From sequence record PZ179881.1: a stretch of 41,801 bases of DNA. One strand, given 5' to 3'. Source of the DNA: a phage. A program made the position numbers and the translations under genes. Of this stretch, positions 13,049 through 41,284 are shown piece by piece; positions within the stretch are counted from its first letter, which is position 1, and every line of letters starts with the position of its first letter. The notes below the pieces were generated by a model, which was not told the origin of the DNA, ran no database searches, and saw only the letters and a list, made by a program, of their open reading frames with translations.

Positions 13049-13232
13049 TATTCAGCAAGTAGTTGAGATTGCTAAAGAAACCCACGGTGGCAAGGATATG
13101 TTCTTGCATGAGCTGGCTGAGGGTATGTGTGGTGCATTCCGCTGTGAAGGGCTGCATTGTTCGAACTGTCCGTTTAACAACGGGGACGCTCTGAAAGAGC
13201 ACATCATTGAATTGGCGGGAGAACTGGCATGA
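13041..13232 (+). CDS. Small Cys-rich hypothetical protein
   Basis: 63 aa with GGAGGA 6 nt upstream; Cys cluster CGAFRCEGLHCSNCP. Confidence 0.55.
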   Translation: MVNIQQVVEIAKETHGGKDMFLHELAEGMCGAFRCEGLHCSNCPFNNGDALKEHIIELAGELA

Positions 13233-14134
13233 GCAGCTTAACCGTAATGAAGGGCGTGGCGTTCACGCAGAAGCGCCTGCTGCAATGGCTCAAGGAGGAC
13301 GGCAAGGTAGTCGTCCAGACTAAGCGCGACGAGATTCGTTGTGTGGCTAAGGTGGAAGACACTGGCGTAACCTACACCAGCGCCAGCGGCAAGCCCCTCT
13401 ACAACATACACCAGGCGTTCAGCAACCTGTTCACCATGCTGTTTGAAATGACAGGGCTGACGAAGTTCGACATGGGTGTGAGCGTGAACAACTCCTTCGA
13501 CTTGACGAAGCGTGTAGTTCGTGCTAGCAAGAAGCAGTACGACTGCCGTGGCCAGATTGAGTACGAGTTCTGGGACGGCACGAAGAAGAATCCGATTCAC
13601 GTCTACACCGGGCCGCTCACTATGGAGTTCTGGCTGTATGACCTGCCGGAGCTGGGGTGGAAGCCCTACGAAGAACGCCGGAAGATGATGGCTGAGCTGT
13701 GCCGCATGGCAGGTAACAGCCTGTTCTGCCCGGAGACAGAGGTGGTGACCAGCGAGAAGGATGTGTACCAGATACACGACATGCTCATCGGCCTGGGCCA
13801 CGAAGGTACAATGGTCAAGCGCTTCGACCACCGCTACACCGAAGGCCGGACAGTAGACTGGATGAAGTTGAAGCCAGAGGATGAAGTTGATGTGGAAATT
13901 ATCGGCTACACGCCAGGAGAGAACGGCTTCGAAGGAATGGTGGGGTCGCTTATCGGCAGAGCAGAGGACGGCAGCACTGTCAGTTTTAGCGGATTTACGC
14001 TTGAGCTTCGACGGGAACTCACTGATAATTTTGAAGCGTATCGTGGACGCTGGGCCGAGGTTCGCTATATGCAGCGCGATTCTCAAGGCGGCTACCGCCA
14101 CCCGCGCTTCTACCGCTGGCACCCCGATAAGTAA
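13229..14134 (+). CDS. ATP-dependent DNA ligase
   Basis: 301 aa; nucleotidyltransferase-like motifs (LKEDGK / KRDEIR region, EGTMVKR, DWMKLKP, C-terminal RHPRFYRWHPDK); position before DNAP as in phiKMV-type genomes. Motif I is atypical, so moderate confidence. Confidence 0.65.
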   Translation: MSSLTVMKGVAFTQKRLLQWLKEDGKVVVQTKRDEIRCVAKVEDTGVTYTSASGKPLYNIHQAFSNLFTMLFEMTGLTKFDMGVSVNNSFDLTKRVVRASKKQYDCRGQIEYEFWDGTKKNPIHVYTGPLTMEFWLYDLPELGWKPYEERRKMMAELCRMAGNSLFCPETEVVTSEKDVYQIHDMLIGLGHEGTMVKRFDHRYTEGRTVDWMKLKPEDEVDVEIIGYTPGENGFEGMVGSLIGRAEDGSTVSFSGFTLELRRELTDNFEAYRGRWAEVRYMQRDSQGGYRHPRFYRWHPDK

Positions 14135-16735: not shown

Positions 16736-17554
16736 ATGACTACTATGCAAGAACGTTTAGCAGCCCGCGCAGAAGCAGCCAAAGCCCGCCAGGGTTCCAT
16801 GAATGATGTTGAGAAGGGTGGCGACGGCAGCGGTAAGAAGTTCAAGACCGCGCCGGAAGGCAAGTTCAAAGCGCGTCTGGTTGGCTATGTCGAAATCGGT
16901 AGCCACGAGAACAAGTTCGACCCGTCGAAAGACCCGGCACCGATGTTCGTTCTGCGCTTCGCCCTGTTCGGTAAGGACTGCCAGGAAGAAGACGGTACGC
17001 CGATTACCATCGACAGCCGTGAAATCAAGATGAGCAAGTTTGAACGTGCGAATGCCGTCAAGCTGTTCCGTCAGATGTGTCCGAAGAAGGATGCCGATCA
17101 CTTCATGGAGCTGCTCGACCGTGTGTTCTGGGTTGAAATCTGGCACAACAAGCAGCAGAAGGGCGATAAAGAAGTCGTGTACGCTAACCTGAAACAGGAG
17201 TCAATCGTACCGGGTGTGCGTGAAGTGCTGGACGACGACGACAACATCATCGGCTACAAGGCGATTGCATGTGACCCGGCACCGGAGAGCATGTTCAACA
17301 TCTTCGAATGGGATAACCCGTCCGTCGAAGACTTCAAGACCTTGAAGCCGTGGGACAAGGACAAGATTCGCAAGGCTGTGAACTTCCCTGGCTCCCACGT
17401 TGAGCAGCTCGTCGGTAAGGGCGAAGATAAGCCTGCCAACACCAACAACGGTGCGGCGACCAACGAGCCGGACGGCGAAGACGACGAGCCGAAACAGACT
17501 GTGGATACTCCGAAGGATATCCCGGTTGAAGGCGCTGACCTGCCGATGCTGTAA
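16736..17554 (+). CDS. Hypothetical protein with strongly acidic C-terminal tail (possible DNA-binding accessory protein)
   Basis: 272 aa; basic N-terminal region, C-terminal ~40 aa rich in D/E (NEPDGEDDEPKQTVDTPKDIPVEGADLPML); GGAGAG upstream. Confidence 0.65.
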   Translation: MTTMQERLAARAEAAKARQGSMNDVEKGGDGSGKKFKTAPEGKFKARLVGYVEIGSHENKFDPSKDPAPMFVLRFALFGKDCQEEDGTPITIDSREIKMSKFERANAVKLFRQMCPKKDADHFMELLDRVFWVEIWHNKQQKGDKEVVYANLKQESIVPGVREVLDDDDNIIGYKAIACDPAPESMFNIFEWDNPSVEDFKTLKPWDKDKIRKAVNFPGSHVEQLVGKGEDKPANTNNGAATNEPDGEDDEPKQTVDTPKDIPVEGADLPML

Positions 17555-18516
17555 TGAGTATCCCGGCTAACTTGCGGGAGCGAATCGCCAAAGTCGCTCC
17601 GCAGTTCCACCGGACTGAGGAGGCGTCTACCCTGGAGGTGGACGCTGACTCCCTCATCTACAAGGTGGCGGCGACCACGAAGAACCTGGAGACAGCTAAG
17701 CGTCGCCTGGTTTCTGAGGCATTAACCCTACACTTCCTGGCTGATACGCAGATTAGCCGCCTGCACCTAACCCCGAAGCACTGCCGCAAAGCTGGACGGT
17801 TCAATGTAATAGCGACCAAGCCCTACCAGGGCAACCGCTCCAAAGGCAAGAAGCCTGAGCTGGTCGAGCCGCTGCGGTACGTTGTGGGGCGCGAACAGTT
17901 GAAGCTGCCACCTGAGTTGCAGATTATCTTCAACGACGTGTACGAGGCTGACGATTCGGTAGTGATGGCATGTACCGCCGACCCGAAGGCCATTTATTAC
18001 TCCGAGGATAAAGACCTCGACTGTTTAAGGAACCGGAAATTATGCCAACACGAGCTACGAGTGCTCCCCACGGTCAGTGGCCTGGGCTGGCTGGCAATGA
18101 AGGAGTTAGCCAGCGGCAAGAAAGTTATCGGACGCGGGCCAGTGTTCTTCTGGGCGCAGATGCTGATGGGCGATGGGGCGGACAACATCAAGGGGATAAC
18201 GAAGGCGAACGGGAAACTGTGTGGCCCGGCTGCGACGTTCGAGTTACTGCGCGGGTTTCTGATTCCGCAGTCGGATTCGCTGACGCCGCATCCCGTAATT
18301 CCGACGATTACTGAGCAGGACGTGGCGCGGTACGTGCTGCGCCTCTACATGGAGAACGGTCAGAATCCCTGGCCGGAAGCCTGGCTCCTGTGGCTGTACC
18401 CGGCTGATGGTTATAACTTCCATCGCCACCTGCATAACCTGGGCTTGCTGGACGACAGCGACCTGGGTGTGTGGCTGAAACAACAACTCTCTCTTAAATG
18501 GTTCAATAAGGATTGA
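17554..18516 (+). CDS. 5'-3' exonuclease (T7 gp6/FEN-like)
   Basis: 320 aa; helix-3-turn-helix motif GDGADNIKGI typical of 5' nucleases; TAATG overlap with upstream gene. Confidence 0.7.
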   Translation: MSIPANLRERIAKVAPQFHRTEEASTLEVDADSLIYKVAATTKNLETAKRRLVSEALTLHFLADTQISRLHLTPKHCRKAGRFNVIATKPYQGNRSKGKKPELVEPLRYVVGREQLKLPPELQIIFNDVYEADDSVVMACTADPKAIYYSEDKDLDCLRNRKLCQHELRVLPTVSGLGWLAMKELASGKKVIGRGPVFFWAQMLMGDGADNIKGITKANGKLCGPAATFELLRGFLIPQSDSLTPHPVIPTITEQDVARYVLRLYMENGQNPWPEAWLLWLYPADGYNFHRHLHNLGLLDDSDLGVWLKQQLSLKWFNKD

Positions 18517-18520
18517 CATT

Positions 18521-18934
18521 ATGAAAAACATCATCGACGTAAACGAGTTCACCCGCGCTTATCATGCAGCCGAGCTGGGTGACCTGGTGCAACGTGGCCT
18601 GTACAAGCAGGTTGGCCAGATTCGTACTGAATACTTCACCATGAATGGCGCGGCGCGTCAGGTGGTTCGTCGTGAGAGCCTGGCGGTTATCCACGACCTG
18701 CACTTGCAGAAGTTCTACGCTGTAGAGCAGTACAAGGGCATCGCCATCCGCGCAGAGATTCGTGATGAAGAAATGCTGGCGGCCATCATCGAAACCCTGC
18801 CGACCCTGGAGCCGGACGAAGGCTTCGTGTACGACCAGACCATTGAGCTGTCCGCTGAGGAAGTTCGCCGTGAGCTGGTAGTCGCGCCGGAAGGCGTAGA
18901 GGTCAACGACGGTACGGAAGGCCTGGATGCGTAA
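18521..18934 (+). CDS. Hypothetical protein
   Basis: 137-aa ORF, AAGGA upstream; acidic C-terminus. Confidence 0.6.
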   Translation: MKNIIDVNEFTRAYHAAELGDLVQRGLYKQVGQIRTEYFTMNGAARQVVRRESLAVIHDLHLQKFYAVEQYKGIAIRAEIRDEEMLAAIIETLPTLEPDEGFVYDQTIELSAEEVRRELVVAPEGVEVNDGTEGLDA

Positions 18935-19391
18935 ATTAACCCGTTCACAAGCCGCTGTACTGGCGGCTAAAATGGTTCGTGAGTCTGCTGGCTGCCCGCT
19001 GTGCCAGCGCTCATGGGCGGAGGTACAGAAGGATGCAGAGGACAAGGCTGCTGCTAAAGGCAAGAAGTTACGGCAGGCACCGTATGTGCTCGACCACGAC
19101 CATAACTCAGGGCGTTGCCGAGGCGTTCTCTGTCGCGGCTGCAACGGTGCTGAGGGAAAGGTTGCCAACGCTGTCTCGGCCTGGGGCAAGACGGGAAAGG
19201 AGTACGCCGCTATTCTTGGGTGGCTACAGCGCATGGTGGCGTATCTCCAGCAAGAACCTACGGAGTATATCTACCCGACACACGTAATGGCTGACGAGAA
19301 GAAAGCGAGCGCGGCTCAGCTACGTCGCCAGGCAGCACAAAAGAAGGTGCGCGAGCGCCGCAAACAGATTGCAGATAAACGAGGTAAGTAA
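18927..19391 (+). CDS. Endonuclease VII-like Holliday-junction resolvase
   Basis: 154 aa; CPLC ... DHDH ... GRCRGVLCRGCN arrangement characteristic of T4 endoVII-type nucleases. Confidence 0.7.
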   Translation: MRKLTRSQAAVLAAKMVRESAGCPLCQRSWAEVQKDAEDKAAAKGKKLRQAPYVLDHDHNSGRCRGVLCRGCNGAEGKVANAVSAWGKTGKEYAAILGWLQRMVAYLQQEPTEYIYPTHVMADEKKASAAQLRRQAAQKKVRERRKQIADKRGK

Positions 19392-20434
19392 TGGCAAAGG
19401 TATCCCTAATCAATCTCTTTACCAAAGAGCAGCACATCGCGGTACTGAGCAAGTTCAAGTCGAATGCCGACGCAGCTCTGGCCTATAACATCGCCCTGGC
19501 CTACGGCGAGTCTGCCGACAAGATTGGCGAGGGTGACCTCAAAGAGTTCGGCCCGGCGCTGAGCGTCGGCGAGCACGAAGTAATCAGCCGTCAGTTGGTT
19601 CGCTACTGGCGTAACATCTTCATCGACCACGAAGGCAAGAAAGGAGCCACCAATGCAGGACTCAAAGAAGCGCGTAAACTCATCTCTCCATCGCCTACTG
19701 ACGATATCGGTAACACTCAAGTGCCTAGCATGTGTCGCCGTATTCTTGTCGTTGGTGACCTACACGCTCCTTACACACACCCCGACGCGTTAGACTTCCT
19801 GCGCCACGTTCGTGACAGCTACGGCCCGGACATGGTGATTCAGGTGGGCGACGAGACGGACGGACACGCAATCAGCTTCCACGACAGCGACCCTAACCTG
19901 GACAGCGCTGGTGTTGAGCTGGAGAAGGCTAAACTGGTACTGGAGAAGCTGCATGAACTGTTCCCGAACCTGCTTGTGTGTGACTCGAATCACGGCAGTC
20001 TGGTGTATCGCCGCGCTAAGGCTCACGGTTTACCAGTACAGTTCATCAAGAAGTATCGAGACATTCTGTTCCCGGAACATGGTGCGCCAGCGTGGTCGTG
20101 GGCAGATGCCTGGGTGCTTAACACCCCTCTCGGCCCTGTACGTTTCCAGCACCAGGTTAGTGGTGACTTCATGCTCAACGCTTCCCACGAACGCACAAGC
20201 CTCGTCCTCGGTCATGAGCATGGGCGCTTCGAGGTTCAATATGCGGCATCCAGCACCGCTCTTTACTTTGGCGCATACGCCGGGTGCCTGATTGACCGCA
20301 AGAGCATGGCATTCGCCTACGGCAAGCTGACCCGTAAGAAGCCTATCCTGGGCTGCATGGTAATCACCGATGGTTGCCCGCAGCTTATCCCAATGCTGAT
20401 GAACGAGGAGGGCCGCTGGGTTGGCGCGGAATAA
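19391..20434 (+). CDS. Calcineurin-like metallophosphoesterase with extra N-terminal domain
   Basis: 347 aa; MPP signature blocks VVGDLHAPYTHPD, GDETDGH, NHGS and GHEHG; ~110-aa N-terminal extension unrecognised. Confidence 0.65.
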   Translation: MAKVSLINLFTKEQHIAVLSKFKSNADAALAYNIALAYGESADKIGEGDLKEFGPALSVGEHEVISRQLVRYWRNIFIDHEGKKGATNAGLKEARKLISPSPTDDIGNTQVPSMCRRILVVGDLHAPYTHPDALDFLRHVRDSYGPDMVIQVGDETDGHAISFHDSDPNLDSAGVELEKAKLVLEKLHELFPNLLVCDSNHGSLVYRRAKAHGLPVQFIKKYRDILFPEHGAPAWSWADAWVLNTPLGPVRFQHQVSGDFMLNASHERTSLVLGHEHGRFEVQYAASSTALYFGAYAGCLIDRKSMAFAYGKLTRKKPILGCMVITDGCPQLIPMLMNEEGRWVGAE

Positions 20435-20762
20435 GCGTAAGTGGCGGCAGTTCTTCTATGAAGACGGGACACCCAGGCGGTGTCCTCACTGCATATCGCC
20501 TGACCTGAAAGAGATTGTACGCGACTCGATTGACGTGGGTGTCGGCGGTGGCGGCATCCCATGCGAGATAGAGACTCGCTGCAATAAGTGCAACTCCATG
20601 CTGGGCTATTGGGCCTACGGGAGTTATGACCCTTGTTTCCTCATGGAGTTCGTAGGTTATGACGATGAAGCTAGTGATTGTGGAAAGCCCGTATGCGGGT
20701 GCGGTACAGCAGAATGTCCACTATGCCCGGCTGTGCCTGGCGGACTGTCTGAAACGTGGTGA
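20421..20762 (+). CDS. Possible Cys-rich zinc-ribbon protein (TTG start)
   Basis: Track ORF begins at TTG 20421, 8 nt after GAGGAGGG; protein contains CPHC...CNKC and CGKPVCGCGTAECPLC clusters; 3' third overlaps the next gene by ~100 nt. Confidence 0.35.
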   Translation: MARNKRKWRQFFYEDGTPRRCPHCISPDLKEIVRDSIDVGVGGGGIPCEIETRCNKCNSMLGYWAYGSYDPCFLMEFVGYDDEASDCGKPVCGCGTAECPLCPAVPGGLSETW

Positions 20763-20988
20763 GGCACCGATTGCCAGCCATCTGTTATACACGCAGCCCA
20801 ACGTGCTCAACGACGATATCCCGGAAGAACGTGCTCTGGGTATTGCCGCAGGGTTAGCGTGGCGCAGCGTGGCGGAGAAGGCCATATTCTACGTTGACCG
20901 TGGCTGGTCTTCCGGCATGACGGCGGCACTTGAGCTGTACGACCGTGAAGGCTTCCCATATGAATTTCGTAAACTGGAGGGTTACTAA
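20659..20988 (+). CDS. Hypothetical protein (possible Rossmann-like nucleoside deoxyribosyltransferase-like fold)
   Basis: 109 aa; N-terminal MKLVIVESPYAG resembles the beta-strand/P-loop start of NDT-like phage proteins; weak, from memory only. Confidence 0.5.
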   Translation: MTMKLVIVESPYAGAVQQNVHYARLCLADCLKRGEAPIASHLLYTQPNVLNDDIPEERALGIAAGLAWRSVAEKAIFYVDRGWSSGMTAALELYDREGFPYEFRKLEGY

Positions 20989-21296
20989 TGAGCGCAGTTG
21001 GTACTGGATTGAAGTTTGACGGCGATAAGCCACGTATGGATTTACTGCTGGACGGTTGCCCGCTGGCGCTGCTGCGTATCAGCGACGTGCTAACCTTCGG
21101 CGCGAAGAAGTATGAAGCGCATAGCTGGCACACGGTAGCCGAGGGCAAGACGCGCTACAAGGCGGCGCTGCTGCGGCACCTGACGGCTCACGCCCAGGGC
21201 GAAGTGAATGACCCGGAGAGTGGCCTGCCGCACCTGGCACATGCCGCTTGTTGCTCACTGTTTATCCTGGAGCTGGAACAACGTGACTCCGAGTAG
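20988..21296 (+). CDS. DUF5664-like protein (putative dATP/dGTP pyrophosphohydrolase-type domain)
   Basis: 102 aa; N-terminal KFDGDKPRMDLLL...LLRISDVLTFGAKKYEAHSWH matches my recollection of the K-x-D-x-x-K-P-R-x-D-L-L / VLxFGAxKY signature; GGAGGG upstream. Confidence 0.5.
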   Translation: MSAVGTGLKFDGDKPRMDLLLDGCPLALLRISDVLTFGAKKYEAHSWHTVAEGKTRYKAALLRHLTAHAQGEVNDPESGLPHLAHAACCSLFILELEQRDSE

Positions 21297-38707: not shown

Positions 38708-41284
38708 ATGACCACTTCAACCTGGCAACCATTTGCTATAGGTGATGGCGACTATAACACCATGCACACCTGGGCTGGTGATGGTAATGCTGCTCGTGCA
38801 TTTGAGCTTAACTTCAAGGGCGGGTACATTAGCCAGGCTGACGTTAAGGCGTTTATGATTAAGCGCGGTACGAACCAGCAAGTTGACCTCACTGTTAAAT
38901 TTACCAATACGAACACCGTCACTCTGAGCCAGGCCGTACCGGAAGGCTGGGACGTGACTATCTACCGTGACACGCCAAAGGATAAGCCGACGGCATCCTT
39001 CGTGGACGGTGCGCTGATTACCGCAGCTAACCTTGACCGTAACGCACGGCAGGCTATCTTCGGTGTGGCTGAGCTGGCTGACCGGATGGATATCTCACAA
39101 GATACCTCCAACAATGCCCTGGCGACTGCACAGGCTGCTGTGGCGGGTGTGGCTGCTACCCAGGACACCGCCGACCACGCGGTAGGTATCGCCAATGACG
39201 CGGTAACCACTGCCAGAGGCGCAATGACCAAATCCAACCAGGCGCTTGCCCGTGTTGACCAGGCATCCAGCCGCTCGCTGGACGCACTCAACGTGGCTAA
39301 CGAAGCCCTGGACGTCGCTAACTCCCATGTTGACGACAGCAAGAACATTAGCCGCGTTGTCCGTGCTCCGGCAGGTGAAACCCTGGCAGAACTCCCGGCG
39401 CGTGAGCTGCGTAAAGGCAAAGGCCTCTCCTTCGACGTTAACGGCGATATTGTCGCTGTTACCCCGGTTGAAGGTTCTGCCGAAGCCGTGCTACAATCAC
39501 TCCGCCAGCCTAACGGACTGTCCCACATCGGTAACGCCTATGGCACCGCTGGACTGGACACCGCCATCAAGTACCTGACTTTTGAAATGTTCGGTGCTAA
39601 AGCTGGAACCACTACTGACCAGACTGCTGCTATTCAGGCAACGGTCGAAGCAGCCGCCAATACTGGCCTGCCTATCTGGTCTACTGGTGCCTACTTCATG
39701 AACGGTATAGTAACCCTTGATAAAGACGTCAAGATTACTGGTGCTAAGTTCATTGGCCCAGCATCGTCCACTTCTCAGAAGTTCGCGGTGCAGGCTGACG
39801 TTACCTTTGAGTGGTGCTCCTTTGACAAGGTGTACATTCACCACACTGACGGTAACCTGAAAGTTATCAACTTCAACATTGAGAACACCCGCTCCACCGC
39901 TGCAATCTTCTCTGAGAAGGTTGAGTCGAGAGTGACTGTAGAGCTGCGCTATGGCACGTTCCGTAACTGCTACTTCGGTTATCTCCGTCAGGGCGGCTCT
40001 GGCATGGGCCTTCGTGCGAACGTTATGCGCGGACTCCAGTTCTTTGACATGCAGGGTGACTGCATTGAAATGAACCTGTGCATCAACGATGAGTACACTC
40101 TGGTTGAAGACGTAGTAATCGACGTGGTTGACCACCTCGGCACCCAGCCCAATTGGGGCATCGCTATGGGCTTTGCTGGTAAGGGTGACTACGGACTGAC
40201 CGAGGACTACACCAACTACTTCAAGAACCTGACGCTGCGCAACTGCCGTGTGTATGCCGCTCGCCAATGTATCCACATTGAGAAGGGCTACAACTGCCTG
40301 ATTGAGAACGTCGAGCTGTACCCGGATAACAACCGCTCTACCAATGCTGGTATCGAAGCCGCAGGCCTCGTCCTGTATGGCTGCTCCAGCATTTCTGTTG
40401 ACGGTGTTACTGGTTCGCCGATTACTGGTCAGCGTATGCTCTGGGTTACCTGGGGTATCACTGGTGGTCAGTACAAGTCAGCAGGCCGGGATATCTCCTT
40501 CCGCAACGTCAACATCGGCGGTACGGTTGAGATTCACATGGCGGCTACCGACACCTACCCAGCGTTCCTGGAAATCGACCACCTGAATGCAGACAGGCTG
40601 ACCATCATCGGCCACGCCTCTGAGTACAATGTGGCTAACGTCCGGGCTAAGGCTATCGAAATGGAGTTCCACCGCGTTAACAACGACGGTCGTGACTCTG
40701 TACGTCGCCCTTCCCGCTGTGTGGCTAACTTCCGTAACGTCCGCGCCAATCTCATTGCGAACACTGGCGTAACCCTGGGCCGTATGGCCGTGGATGAAAT
40801 GTCCGTATCTGATACGAACTTCCCTCTGCGCAAAACAGCCAGCTCGGTTACCAACCGTGGTACGCCACTGACCAAGATTGACGGCACCTTCTTCCACGAA
40901 GGTAACGGGTTCCCGTGGGGCTACTGGTTCCTGCCAGGCGACCGCATCGTGAACGCACAGGGTACTACCTACACCATCCTGACGGAAGGTTGTCAGTTCA
41001 AGTCCTCTGGCGACACTGTGGTGCGGGCAGCATCCGCTGGAGCTACCCTGCTCCAGGGTAACACCACTGAGAACTGGACTACGGTTTACTGGAAGACGGC
41101 TGGTTGTAAGGTTGTCATTCCGAAAGGTGGTGCAGGCGGCTCTGACCTCCACACTACTATCATCCGCTCTGCCTACATCGGCGGCGGCATCTACACCATC
41201 GGCATCGCTGACCCGCTTGGCGCGGATATCCCTGCGGGGACTGTTATCACGCCGGAAGCGATTTGCACCTATGTAACTAAATAA
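38708..41284 (+). CDS. Tail fibre/tailspike protein with probable beta-helical polysaccharide depolymerase domain
   Basis: 858 aa; preceded by a phage promoter; central/C-terminal region has repetitive Gly/Asn/Thr-rich segments typical of beta-helix tailspikes (domain call from composition, not a search). Confidence 0.7.
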   Translation: MTTSTWQPFAIGDGDYNTMHTWAGDGNAARAFELNFKGGYISQADVKAFMIKRGTNQQVDLTVKFTNTNTVTLSQAVPEGWDVTIYRDTPKDKPTASFVDGALITAANLDRNARQAIFGVAELADRMDISQDTSNNALATAQAAVAGVAATQDTADHAVGIANDAVTTARGAMTKSNQALARVDQASSRSLDALNVANEALDVANSHVDDSKNISRVVRAPAGETLAELPARELRKGKGLSFDVNGDIVAVTPVEGSAEAVLQSLRQPNGLSHIGNAYGTAGLDTAIKYLTFEMFGAKAGTTTDQTAAIQATVEAAANTGLPIWSTGAYFMNGIVTLDKDVKITGAKFIGPASSTSQKFAVQADVTFEWCSFDKVYIHHTDGNLKVINFNIENTRSTAAIFSEKVESRVTVELRYGTFRNCYFGYLRQGGSGMGLRANVMRGLQFFDMQGDCIEMNLCINDEYTLVEDVVIDVVDHLGTQPNWGIAMGFAGKGDYGLTEDYTNYFKNLTLRNCRVYAARQCIHIEKGYNCLIENVELYPDNNRSTNAGIEAAGLVLYGCSSISVDGVTGSPITGQRMLWVTWGITGGQYKSAGRDISFRNVNIGGTVEIHMAATDTYPAFLEIDHLNADRLTIIGHASEYNVANVRAKAIEMEFHRVNNDGRDSVRRPSRCVANFRNVRANLIANTGVTLGRMAVDEMSVSDTNFPLRKTASSVTNRGTPLTKIDGTFFHEGNGFPWGYWFLPGDRIVNAQGTTYTILTEGCQFKSSGDTVVRAASAGATLLQGNTTENWTTVYWKTAGCKVVIPKGGAGGSDLHTTIIRSAYIGGGIYTIGIADPLGADIPAGTVITPEAICTYVTK

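Follow-up and report, generated by a model that had tools for sequence, protein, structure and literature searches.

A conserved phage metallophosphoesterase with a probable helix-turn-helix N-terminal module, encoded in the replication block of a Cronobacter phage

Sequence record PZ179881.1 is the complete, circularly permuted genome of a GAP227/GY3-like Cronobacter phage. The whole 41.8-kb stretch was analyzed and is called the window; nearly all of its coding lies on the plus strand. The gene in question, at 19391–20434 (+), encodes a calcineurin-like metallophosphoesterase (MPP) and is a single open reading frame (ORF) of 347 residues with an ATG start and a TAA stop. A GAGG ribosome-binding (Shine-Dalgarno) site, read from the sequence at 19381–19384 (+), lies 6 nt 5' of the ATG. 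The start codon at 19391 and the TAA stop of the directly upstream endonuclease VII gene have one base in common, the A of TAATG. The gene region is 98–99% identical at the nucleotide level to its counterparts in phages GY3 and GAP227 (Autographiviridae, Melnykvirinae, Cronosvirus), and the gene itself is 98–100% identical to those already annotated as 'metallo-phosphoesterase' in these two Cronobacter phages. The protein matches the phrog_221 'metallo-phosphoesterase' profile from end to end (E = 1.1e-110, residues 1–346 against profile positions 14–358 of 367). It is a plain member of phrog_221 together with GAP227 gp25, KP34 gp23, SP6 gp23, and K1-5 gp22, does not differ from them, and has the same position on the genome map. 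GenBank already carries the annotation of the gene as GAP227_25, KP34 gp23, and SP6 gp23. The gene is real, intact, and already annotated, hence not new; its family is named yet functionally uncharacterized. Literature searches for functional work on the phrog_221 family returned genome-announcement mentions only.

The catalytic core lies at 19739–20431 (+; residues 117–347) and corresponds to a module of ~235 residues that most family members have as a stand-alone protein. Searching 1.84 billion cluster representatives exhaustively with HMMER identified 1,652 relatives at E ≤ 1e-3. These are representatives of 50%-identity clusters, and 121 diverse ones were aligned. All five motif types of the MPP superfamily (PF00149) are present, namely DxH, GD, GNH-type, H, and GHxH, and the motif blocks GDLHAP, GDETDGH, NHGS, and GHEHG that an earlier note on this DNA had read as MPP signatures were all found. 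Motif I (VGD123LH125APYTH130; 19751–19780, +) carries a family-specific PY.H.DA extension that includes H130 and D132. Motif II (GD154ETD157GH159AISFH164; 19847–19882, +) has the family-specific form GDE.D.HA.SFH and lacks the Arg of GDxxDRG; E176, downstream of it, is invariant. Motif III (DSN200H201GS; 19982–19999, +) reads SNHG instead of the usual GNH[D/E]. The His of motif IV (RFQH254Q; 20141–20155, +) is invariant, and motif V is GH275EH277G (20210–20224, +). The metal ligands D154, N200, H201, H254, and H277 are invariant in the 121 relatives, with D123, H125, and H275 kept in 90% of them or more. H130, D132, D157, E176, R207, W235, W237, Y310, and W343 are further family-specific conserved positions in this set, and H159 and H164 are conserved among the stand-alone cores. 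The Pfam Metallophos model is passed marginally (23.7 bits against a 21.5-bit cut-off, residues 117–174 only) and also matches 72 of the 121 relatives. Loss of metal ligands on alignment, which the earlier note had named as one finding that would count against it, was not seen. The MPP reading is thus confirmed and is no chance match, and because the canonical ligands are kept across the relatives, the active site looks functional.

Structure prediction and fold comparison, two of the checks proposed in that note, were run. An AlphaFold2 model built from the 121-sequence alignment has a predicted local distance difference test (pLDDT) score above 90 over residues 110–347 and adopts the two-sheet beta-sandwich of the MPP fold. 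The closest fold neighbor is the PolD DP1 proofreading exonuclease (5ihe; score 15.1 over 202 aligned residues), followed by YfcE (14.6), MJ0936 (14.1), Vps29 (13.7 and 13.1), the polymerase delta B-subunit (12.8), SbcD (12.7), LpxH (12.6), and Mre11 (12.5). PnkP ranks 50th and lambda phosphatase 58th, the latter with a score of 9.8. DP1 is an Mre11-like 3'-5' exonuclease and the best structural neighbor of the core. However, DP1 and the phage protein are 10% identical with no match at the sequence level. The phage protein lacks the OB-fold of DP1 and the polymerase B-subunits and has no DP2 or catalytic-subunit partner, its N terminus is all-helical, and the phage polymerase belongs to family A. 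There is no family-level sequence match to Mre11/SbcD, whose motif III is GNHD where the phage protein has SNHG. The protein could not be placed in a housekeeping nuclease family, the other outcome the earlier note had set against its reading. YfcE/MJ0936 proteins are ~160–185 residues long without DNA-binding modules. Their model, YfcE TIGR00040, is the sole hint from an NCBIfam scan that gave no usable match, at 12.5 bits where 56.25 are required. Neither the protein nor the profiles of the family and of the N-terminal region found a significant match in PDB sequence and profile searches; lambda phosphatase was the sole PDB sequence-profile match, at a non-significant E = 1.6. The signatures of lambda-type/PPP phosphatases (GDxHG, GDxVDRG, GNHE) and family-level similarity to them are absent. 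Fold ranking in the model and the motif details (no motif II Arg, SNHG instead of GNHE) point the same way, away from lambda phosphatase. Scanning the protein against the PADLOC anti-phage defence models gave no family at E ≤ 1.

The ~115 residues that precede the core (residues 1–116) are conserved in the closer relatives, and about a dozen of the 150 cluster representatives listed have this type of N-terminal region. Residues 1–98 (19391–19684, +) form a helical module that is basic overall across the family (median isoelectric point 9.15), with helices predicted at residues 12–21, 25–38, 47–58, 67–79, and 84–95. Modeled alone from 55 homologues, the module is a helical bundle with a pLDDT of 85. 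Its layout in the relatives is a conserved segment (residues 1–38), a variable acidic insert, a VSRQLVRYWR.IF element, a basic helix, and the linker to the core. The insert (19505–19576, +; about residues 39–62) is lineage-specific, lies between the second helix and a putative recognition helix, and is absent from most homologues. Alignment columns over residues 39–60 are occupied in fewer than 40% of the homologues, and the computed net charge of residues 39–65 is -5, compared to +5 for residues 66–98. The putative recognition helix, (I)SRQLVRYWRNIFI (19586–19630, +; residues 66–80), is the most conserved part of the module, and R67, Q68, V70, Y72, W73, and R74 within it are conserved in at least 90% of the sequences. 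The linker SPSPTDDIGNTQVPSMCR (19685–19738, +; residues 99–116) follows the pattern PSPTDDIG.T.VP. Its residues P100, P102, D104, D105, G107, T109, and P112 are nearly invariant in close relatives, and pLDDT climbs to ~78 over residues 101–110 of the full-length model.

The earlier note described a separate N-terminal domain of unrecognized type. The absence of a named match stands, since neither Pfam nor PDB sequence searches matched this region, and a Pfam scan of 55 N-terminal modules (this protein and 54 close homologues) gave no meaningful helix-turn-helix (HTH) match, with two isolated matches at E = 0.14 and 0.19. Its nature, however, can be suggested. Weak fold matches of the module resemble an HTH. 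The pattern F[ST].E.h..aL....S...AA..h...(insert)VSRQLV.YW can be followed in register, by eye, through the significant relatives P0124 and P0148 to P0139, and the N terminus of P0139, 'FSDEEILGALEKHGSKSKAAESLGIPRSSYRDLLKK', matches Pfam HTH_8, a Fis-type HTH, at E = 5e-4. Sequence pattern and model together suggest that the N-terminal part is probably an HTH-like DNA-binding module with a lineage-specific insert in its turn. A search of a 5.8-billion-protein set with the N-terminal profile alone gave 14 short proteins that look like fragments or products of split genes, and it revealed no further architectures; it is uninformative on distribution, as full-length proteins were not returned either. 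Several short metagenomic proteins consist of the N-terminal module alone. In Escherichia phage K1E, the module and the core are deposited as separate proteins (BFVD A0A2I4Q1Z7, 104 residues, and A0A2I4Q1Y4, 237 residues), which may reflect either a genuine split or a frameshift.

The N-terminal extensions of the wider family were surveyed by a Pfam scan of the 121 representatives. They belong to many unrelated HTH types. HTH_23 was found in 8 members, and HTH_28, HTH_3, HTH_29, MarR_2, HTH_38, HTH_psq, HTH_24, HTH_SB, HTH_11, Sigma70_r4_2, and others were also present. Three of the 121 have homing-endonuclease-associated DNA-binding repeats at the same end. The N-terminal HTH of P0151 scores 33.7 bits against a cut-off of 24.6, and P0122 carries the module of the Cronobacter phage protein twice in tandem. 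DNA-binding modules have thus been recruited repeatedly and independently to the same end of the core, a pattern best explained by an enzyme that works on or at DNA. This fusion pattern, read from domain matches, is the most informative result of the analysis.

Relatives also contain inteins at three sites, each beside a metal ligand. The insertions lie after DLH (P0181), within GDE|.D (P0127, P0168, P0125, and P0263), and after GH.H (P0246), and P0181 carries a LAGLIDADG_3 homing-endonuclease domain. Important enzymes of replication, repair, and packaging are where inteins concentrate, at conserved sites, and their location at the catalytic motifs fits an important role in DNA metabolism. The homologue in Proteus phage vB_PmiP_RS8pmA (637 residues, BFVD) is long enough to contain an intein.

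The family is essentially phage-borne, as judged from where its sequences occur. On the phage side there are 643 tblastn-positive phage records and more than 580 IMG/VR stretches. A scan for the motif II DNA pattern, which samples only part of the family, was run on 185,579 prokaryotic species with one genome per species; it found only 20 true members, most of them on short contigs of metagenome-assembled genomes. Amino-acid identity across genera is 70–93%, and the gene is syntenic in the replication block.

In the window this block runs in the order primase, helicase, ligase (13229–14134, 5 kb upstream of the MPP gene), family A DNA polymerase, phrog_862 protein, exonuclease, 137-residue protein, endonuclease VII, and MPP. 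The exonuclease gene (17554–18516, +; phrog_107) is codirectional with the MPP gene, and the endonuclease VII gene (18927–19391, +) encodes a Holliday-junction resolvase (Pfam Endonuclease_7, 39.8 bits; phrog_423). Three small genes, a T7-type RNA polymerase gene, and then the structural genes follow. We read this arrangement as similar to the one in phiKMV- and SP6-like phages. Conservation of the neighborhood was assessed in 80 related IMG/VR loci with 46–97% identity to the core. Endonuclease VII lies within 5 kb of the MPP gene in 72 of the 80 and an exonuclease in 73. By manual count, endonuclease VII is immediately upstream, often overlapping, in 49. The overlapping upstream gene of one distant relative encodes endonuclease I, a non-homologous resolvase. 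KP34-like phages instead have the MPP gene directly behind those for DNA polymerase and a gp5.5-like protein. The SP6-like order is exonuclease, endonuclease VII, MPP, then either a nucleotide kinase (BP12B) or a HAD_PNKP-type phosphatase with a kinase-like gene (locus L011), and DNA ligase. The surroundings are thus those of DNA and nucleotide metabolism, and alone they cannot separate a DNA from a nucleotide substrate.

Several neighbors were also characterized. The last 14 nt of the MPP gene are shared with a Cys-rich ORF of 113 residues (20421–20762, +; phrog_2993), which has a TTG start and CxxC pairs suggestive of a zinc ribbon. This ORF is followed, with an overlap of ~100 nt, by a 109-residue DUF7768 protein (20659–20988, +) that also matches phrog_355 'nucleoside 2-deoxyribosyltransferase'. 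The 102-residue product of 20988–21296 (+) is a dATP/dGTP diphosphohydrolase N-terminal domain (dGTP_diPhyd_N, PF18909, 112 bits; phrog_801) encoded just upstream of the RNA polymerase gene, apparently as a domain that stands alone and acts on the nucleotide pool or in dNTP sanitizing. The 272-residue phrog_862 protein between the DNA polymerase and the exonuclease (16736–17554, +) has an acidic C-terminal tail; in position and tail it may resemble the T7 gp2.5-type single-stranded-DNA-binding protein. Farther away, an 858-residue tailspike (38708–41284, +) matches phrog_6117 'colanic acid degradation' over its C-terminal part (E = 3e-254) and is probably a capsule or exopolysaccharide depolymerase.

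A fused ORF was found in Pectobacterium phage PP1 (NC_019542, 18665–19711; locus L065, 4650–5696). The first ~85 residues of this 348-residue ORF are endonuclease VII, in frame with the MPP linker and core, and the HTH-like module is missing. Phage POP72 is 99.9% identical to PP1, has ~364 bp more at the junction, and keeps two separate genes. The PP1 ORF thus looks like the result of an assembly error or of a 364-bp deletion that happened recently, and it was rejected as strong Rosetta-stone evidence.

The reading that fits these results best, to which we give about an even chance, is that of a DNA-tethered di-metal nuclease or phosphodiesterase belonging to a phage module for replication, recombination, and host-DNA breakdown. 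The enzyme would have two parts. A calcineurin-like phosphodiesterase core with two metal ions, probably Mn2+ or Mg2+, would be linked to the basic HTH-like N-terminal module, which would hold the enzyme on DNA. The core would then hydrolyze DNA phosphodiester bonds, either nucleolytically or by trimming ends, beside the 5'-3' exonuclease and endonuclease VII in the middle-gene machinery for replication, recombination, and host-DNA breakdown. DNA binding by the module, DNA as the substrate, and the choice among these transactions are the inferred parts of this proposal. The earlier note listed a nuclease, a protein phosphatase, and a nucleotide phosphodiesterase as candidate roles, and this list was right. 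Its statement that the sequence does not discriminate among them was too cautious. The HTH-like N terminus, the HTH fusions in the family, and the nuclease and replication context, with genes to which the MPP gene is often coupled in translation, discriminate to some degree: together they make an enzyme directed at DNA more likely than a protein phosphatase and somewhat more likely than a phosphodiesterase of second messengers. They speak neither for nor against the anti-defence role that the note had raised.

The closest functional analogues are T5 A1 and mycobacteriophage Gp48. T5 A1 is predicted to be an MPP; reportedly, it is both required and sufficient for digestion of the host chromosome and acts with the DNA-binding protein A2 (bioRxiv 10.64898/2026.04.02.716235). 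The likeness lies in the pairing of a phage MPP with DNA binding of the HTH type. In homologues of ~530 residues that are distant from A1 (P0343, P0345, P0346, P0347, P0349, P0373, and P0385), N-terminal HTH Pfam domains take the place of the T5 A1 N terminus, of the types HTH_23, HTH_38, CENP-B_N, HTH_7, and HTH_31, a parallel to the architecture of the Cronobacter phage protein. T5 A1 differs in length (556 residues), in being the product of a pre-early gene, and in its phage family, Demerecviridae. Gp48 of mycobacteriophage A10ZJ24, a cluster A metallophosphoesterase, has phosphodiesterase activity and causes damage to the DNA of the host, whose defences it helps the phage to overcome (PMC12287305). 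Mycobacterium phages are not among the organisms listed for the 643 phage records (25 minor genera are not shown). Gp48 likely belongs to a different MPP subfamily, and no N-terminal HTH is reported for it.

Several observations weigh against a DNA-tethered nuclease. Most family members are bare cores of ~235 residues without a DNA-binding module, and PP1 apparently lives without its HTH module. The protein has no Mre11-type C-terminal capping domain because it ends at residue 347 with the last core strands. No Rad50/SbcC-like partner was found among the ORFs of at least 600 residues in the genome; these encode the terminase, DNA polymerase, RNA polymerase, tail, internal virion, and tailspike proteins, and all were scanned except the RNA polymerase, which was identified through GAP227_29. 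Membership in the T5 A1 family was rejected, with a non-significant BLASTP result and hhalign probabilities of 20.8% for the profile against A1 and 5.8% for profile against profile, so the relation to T5 A1 is one of analogy and not of family membership. The genes downstream in the window encode nucleotide-pool enzymes (DUF7768, deoxyribosyltransferase-like, and the dATP/dGTP diphosphohydrolase domain), and ribonucleotide reductase (RNR), MazG, or a nucleotide kinase lies near the MPP gene in relatives, with MazG and RNR in a Nitrincola phage and RNR in locus L010. These neighbors fit a nucleotide substrate equally well. Biochemical or genetic data on the family were not found in the searched literature.

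One alternative is a small-nucleotide phosphodiesterase or pyrophosphatase. Its substrate would be a soluble nucleotide, such as a cyclic mono-, di-, or oligonucleotide immune signal, diadenosine tetraphosphate (Ap4A), a 2',3'-cyclic nucleoside monophosphate (2',3'-cNMP), or a derivative of a (deoxy)nucleoside triphosphate or monophosphate ((d)NTP, (d)NMP), and its role would be anti-defence or a reshaping of the nucleotide pool for phage DNA synthesis. This explanation, which we regard as possible although rather unlikely, agrees with the nucleotide-pool genes of the window and with the nucleotide kinase, MazG, and RNR of the relatives, as well as with the majority of the family being stand-alone cores. 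YfcE, the only NCBIfam hint, leans the same way, although its score is far under the cut-off. Phage enzymes known to degrade immune signals, Acb1 and Apyc1, have folds other than MPP. The repeated independent gain of DNA-binding modules at the N terminus is hard to explain with a soluble substrate, and the gene lies in a conserved replication block with the cross-genus identity given above, not in a variable early region. Iyer et al. (PMC7824862) predicted that the calcineurin-like T5 A1 orthologues counter nucleotide signals, which favors a nucleotide substrate and leaves the choice between DNA and nucleotide open even for T5 A1, the best-studied analogue.

End healing is a less probable alternative. 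The MPP domain of bacterial PnkP works in this way, and the phage enzyme would strip 3'-phosphates, 2',3'-cyclic phosphates, or other blocks from broken DNA or RNA for the phage ligase. A tether to nucleic acid, HTH or other, would suit such an enzyme, and in the SP6-like relatives the MPP gene is followed by those for a HAD_PNKP-type phosphatase, a kinase-like protein, and DNA ligase. That same HAD_PNKP neighbor would, however, make the role redundant. The ligase gene of the window is distant and no PNKP-like gene is adjacent, and PnkP is a distant fold match. A protein Ser/Thr/Tyr phosphatase of the lambda type, which would reprogram proteins of the host or the phage and be targeted or regulated by its N-terminal module, is very improbable. 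The superfamily is shared, and lambda phosphatase was the one PDB profile match; the motif II and motif III differences and the DNA-metabolism context argue against it.

A broader proposal, which we advance only tentatively, is that the family comprises widespread phage-specific MPP nucleases that tether themselves through interchangeable HTH modules and have no Rad50-type partner. They would be the counterpart of T5 A1/A2 in the MPP-bearing lineages of Autographiviridae (SP6-, KP34-, and GAP227-like phages) and may act on the host chromosome or on replication and recombination intermediates; substrate or timing could make them a counter-defence factor.

An MPP in a phage is unsurprising to a specialist. 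The present analysis adds that the N-terminal part is probably an HTH tether, that DNA-binding fusions recur across the family, that the gene is linked to a junction resolvase, and that relatives contain inteins. The gene is among the most conserved non-structural genes of several phage groups used for therapy, namely Klebsiella KP34-like, E. coli K1-5/K1E-like, Salmonella SP6-like, Cronobacter, and Pectobacterium phages, yet it has a generic name only. A conserved, uncharacterized HTH-MPP enzyme in many therapeutic phages is worth assaying, and the family offers a natural series of domain swaps and intein insertions for dissecting its function. A nucleotide phosphodiesterase would represent a new enzyme of anti-defence or of the nucleotide pool. 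A DNA-tethered nuclease would close a gap for those T7-like phages that use endonuclease VII in place of T7 endonuclease I, namely how host DNA is broken down or their own DNA processed, and it would be a second independent example of an MPP nuclease combined with an HTH besides T5 A1.

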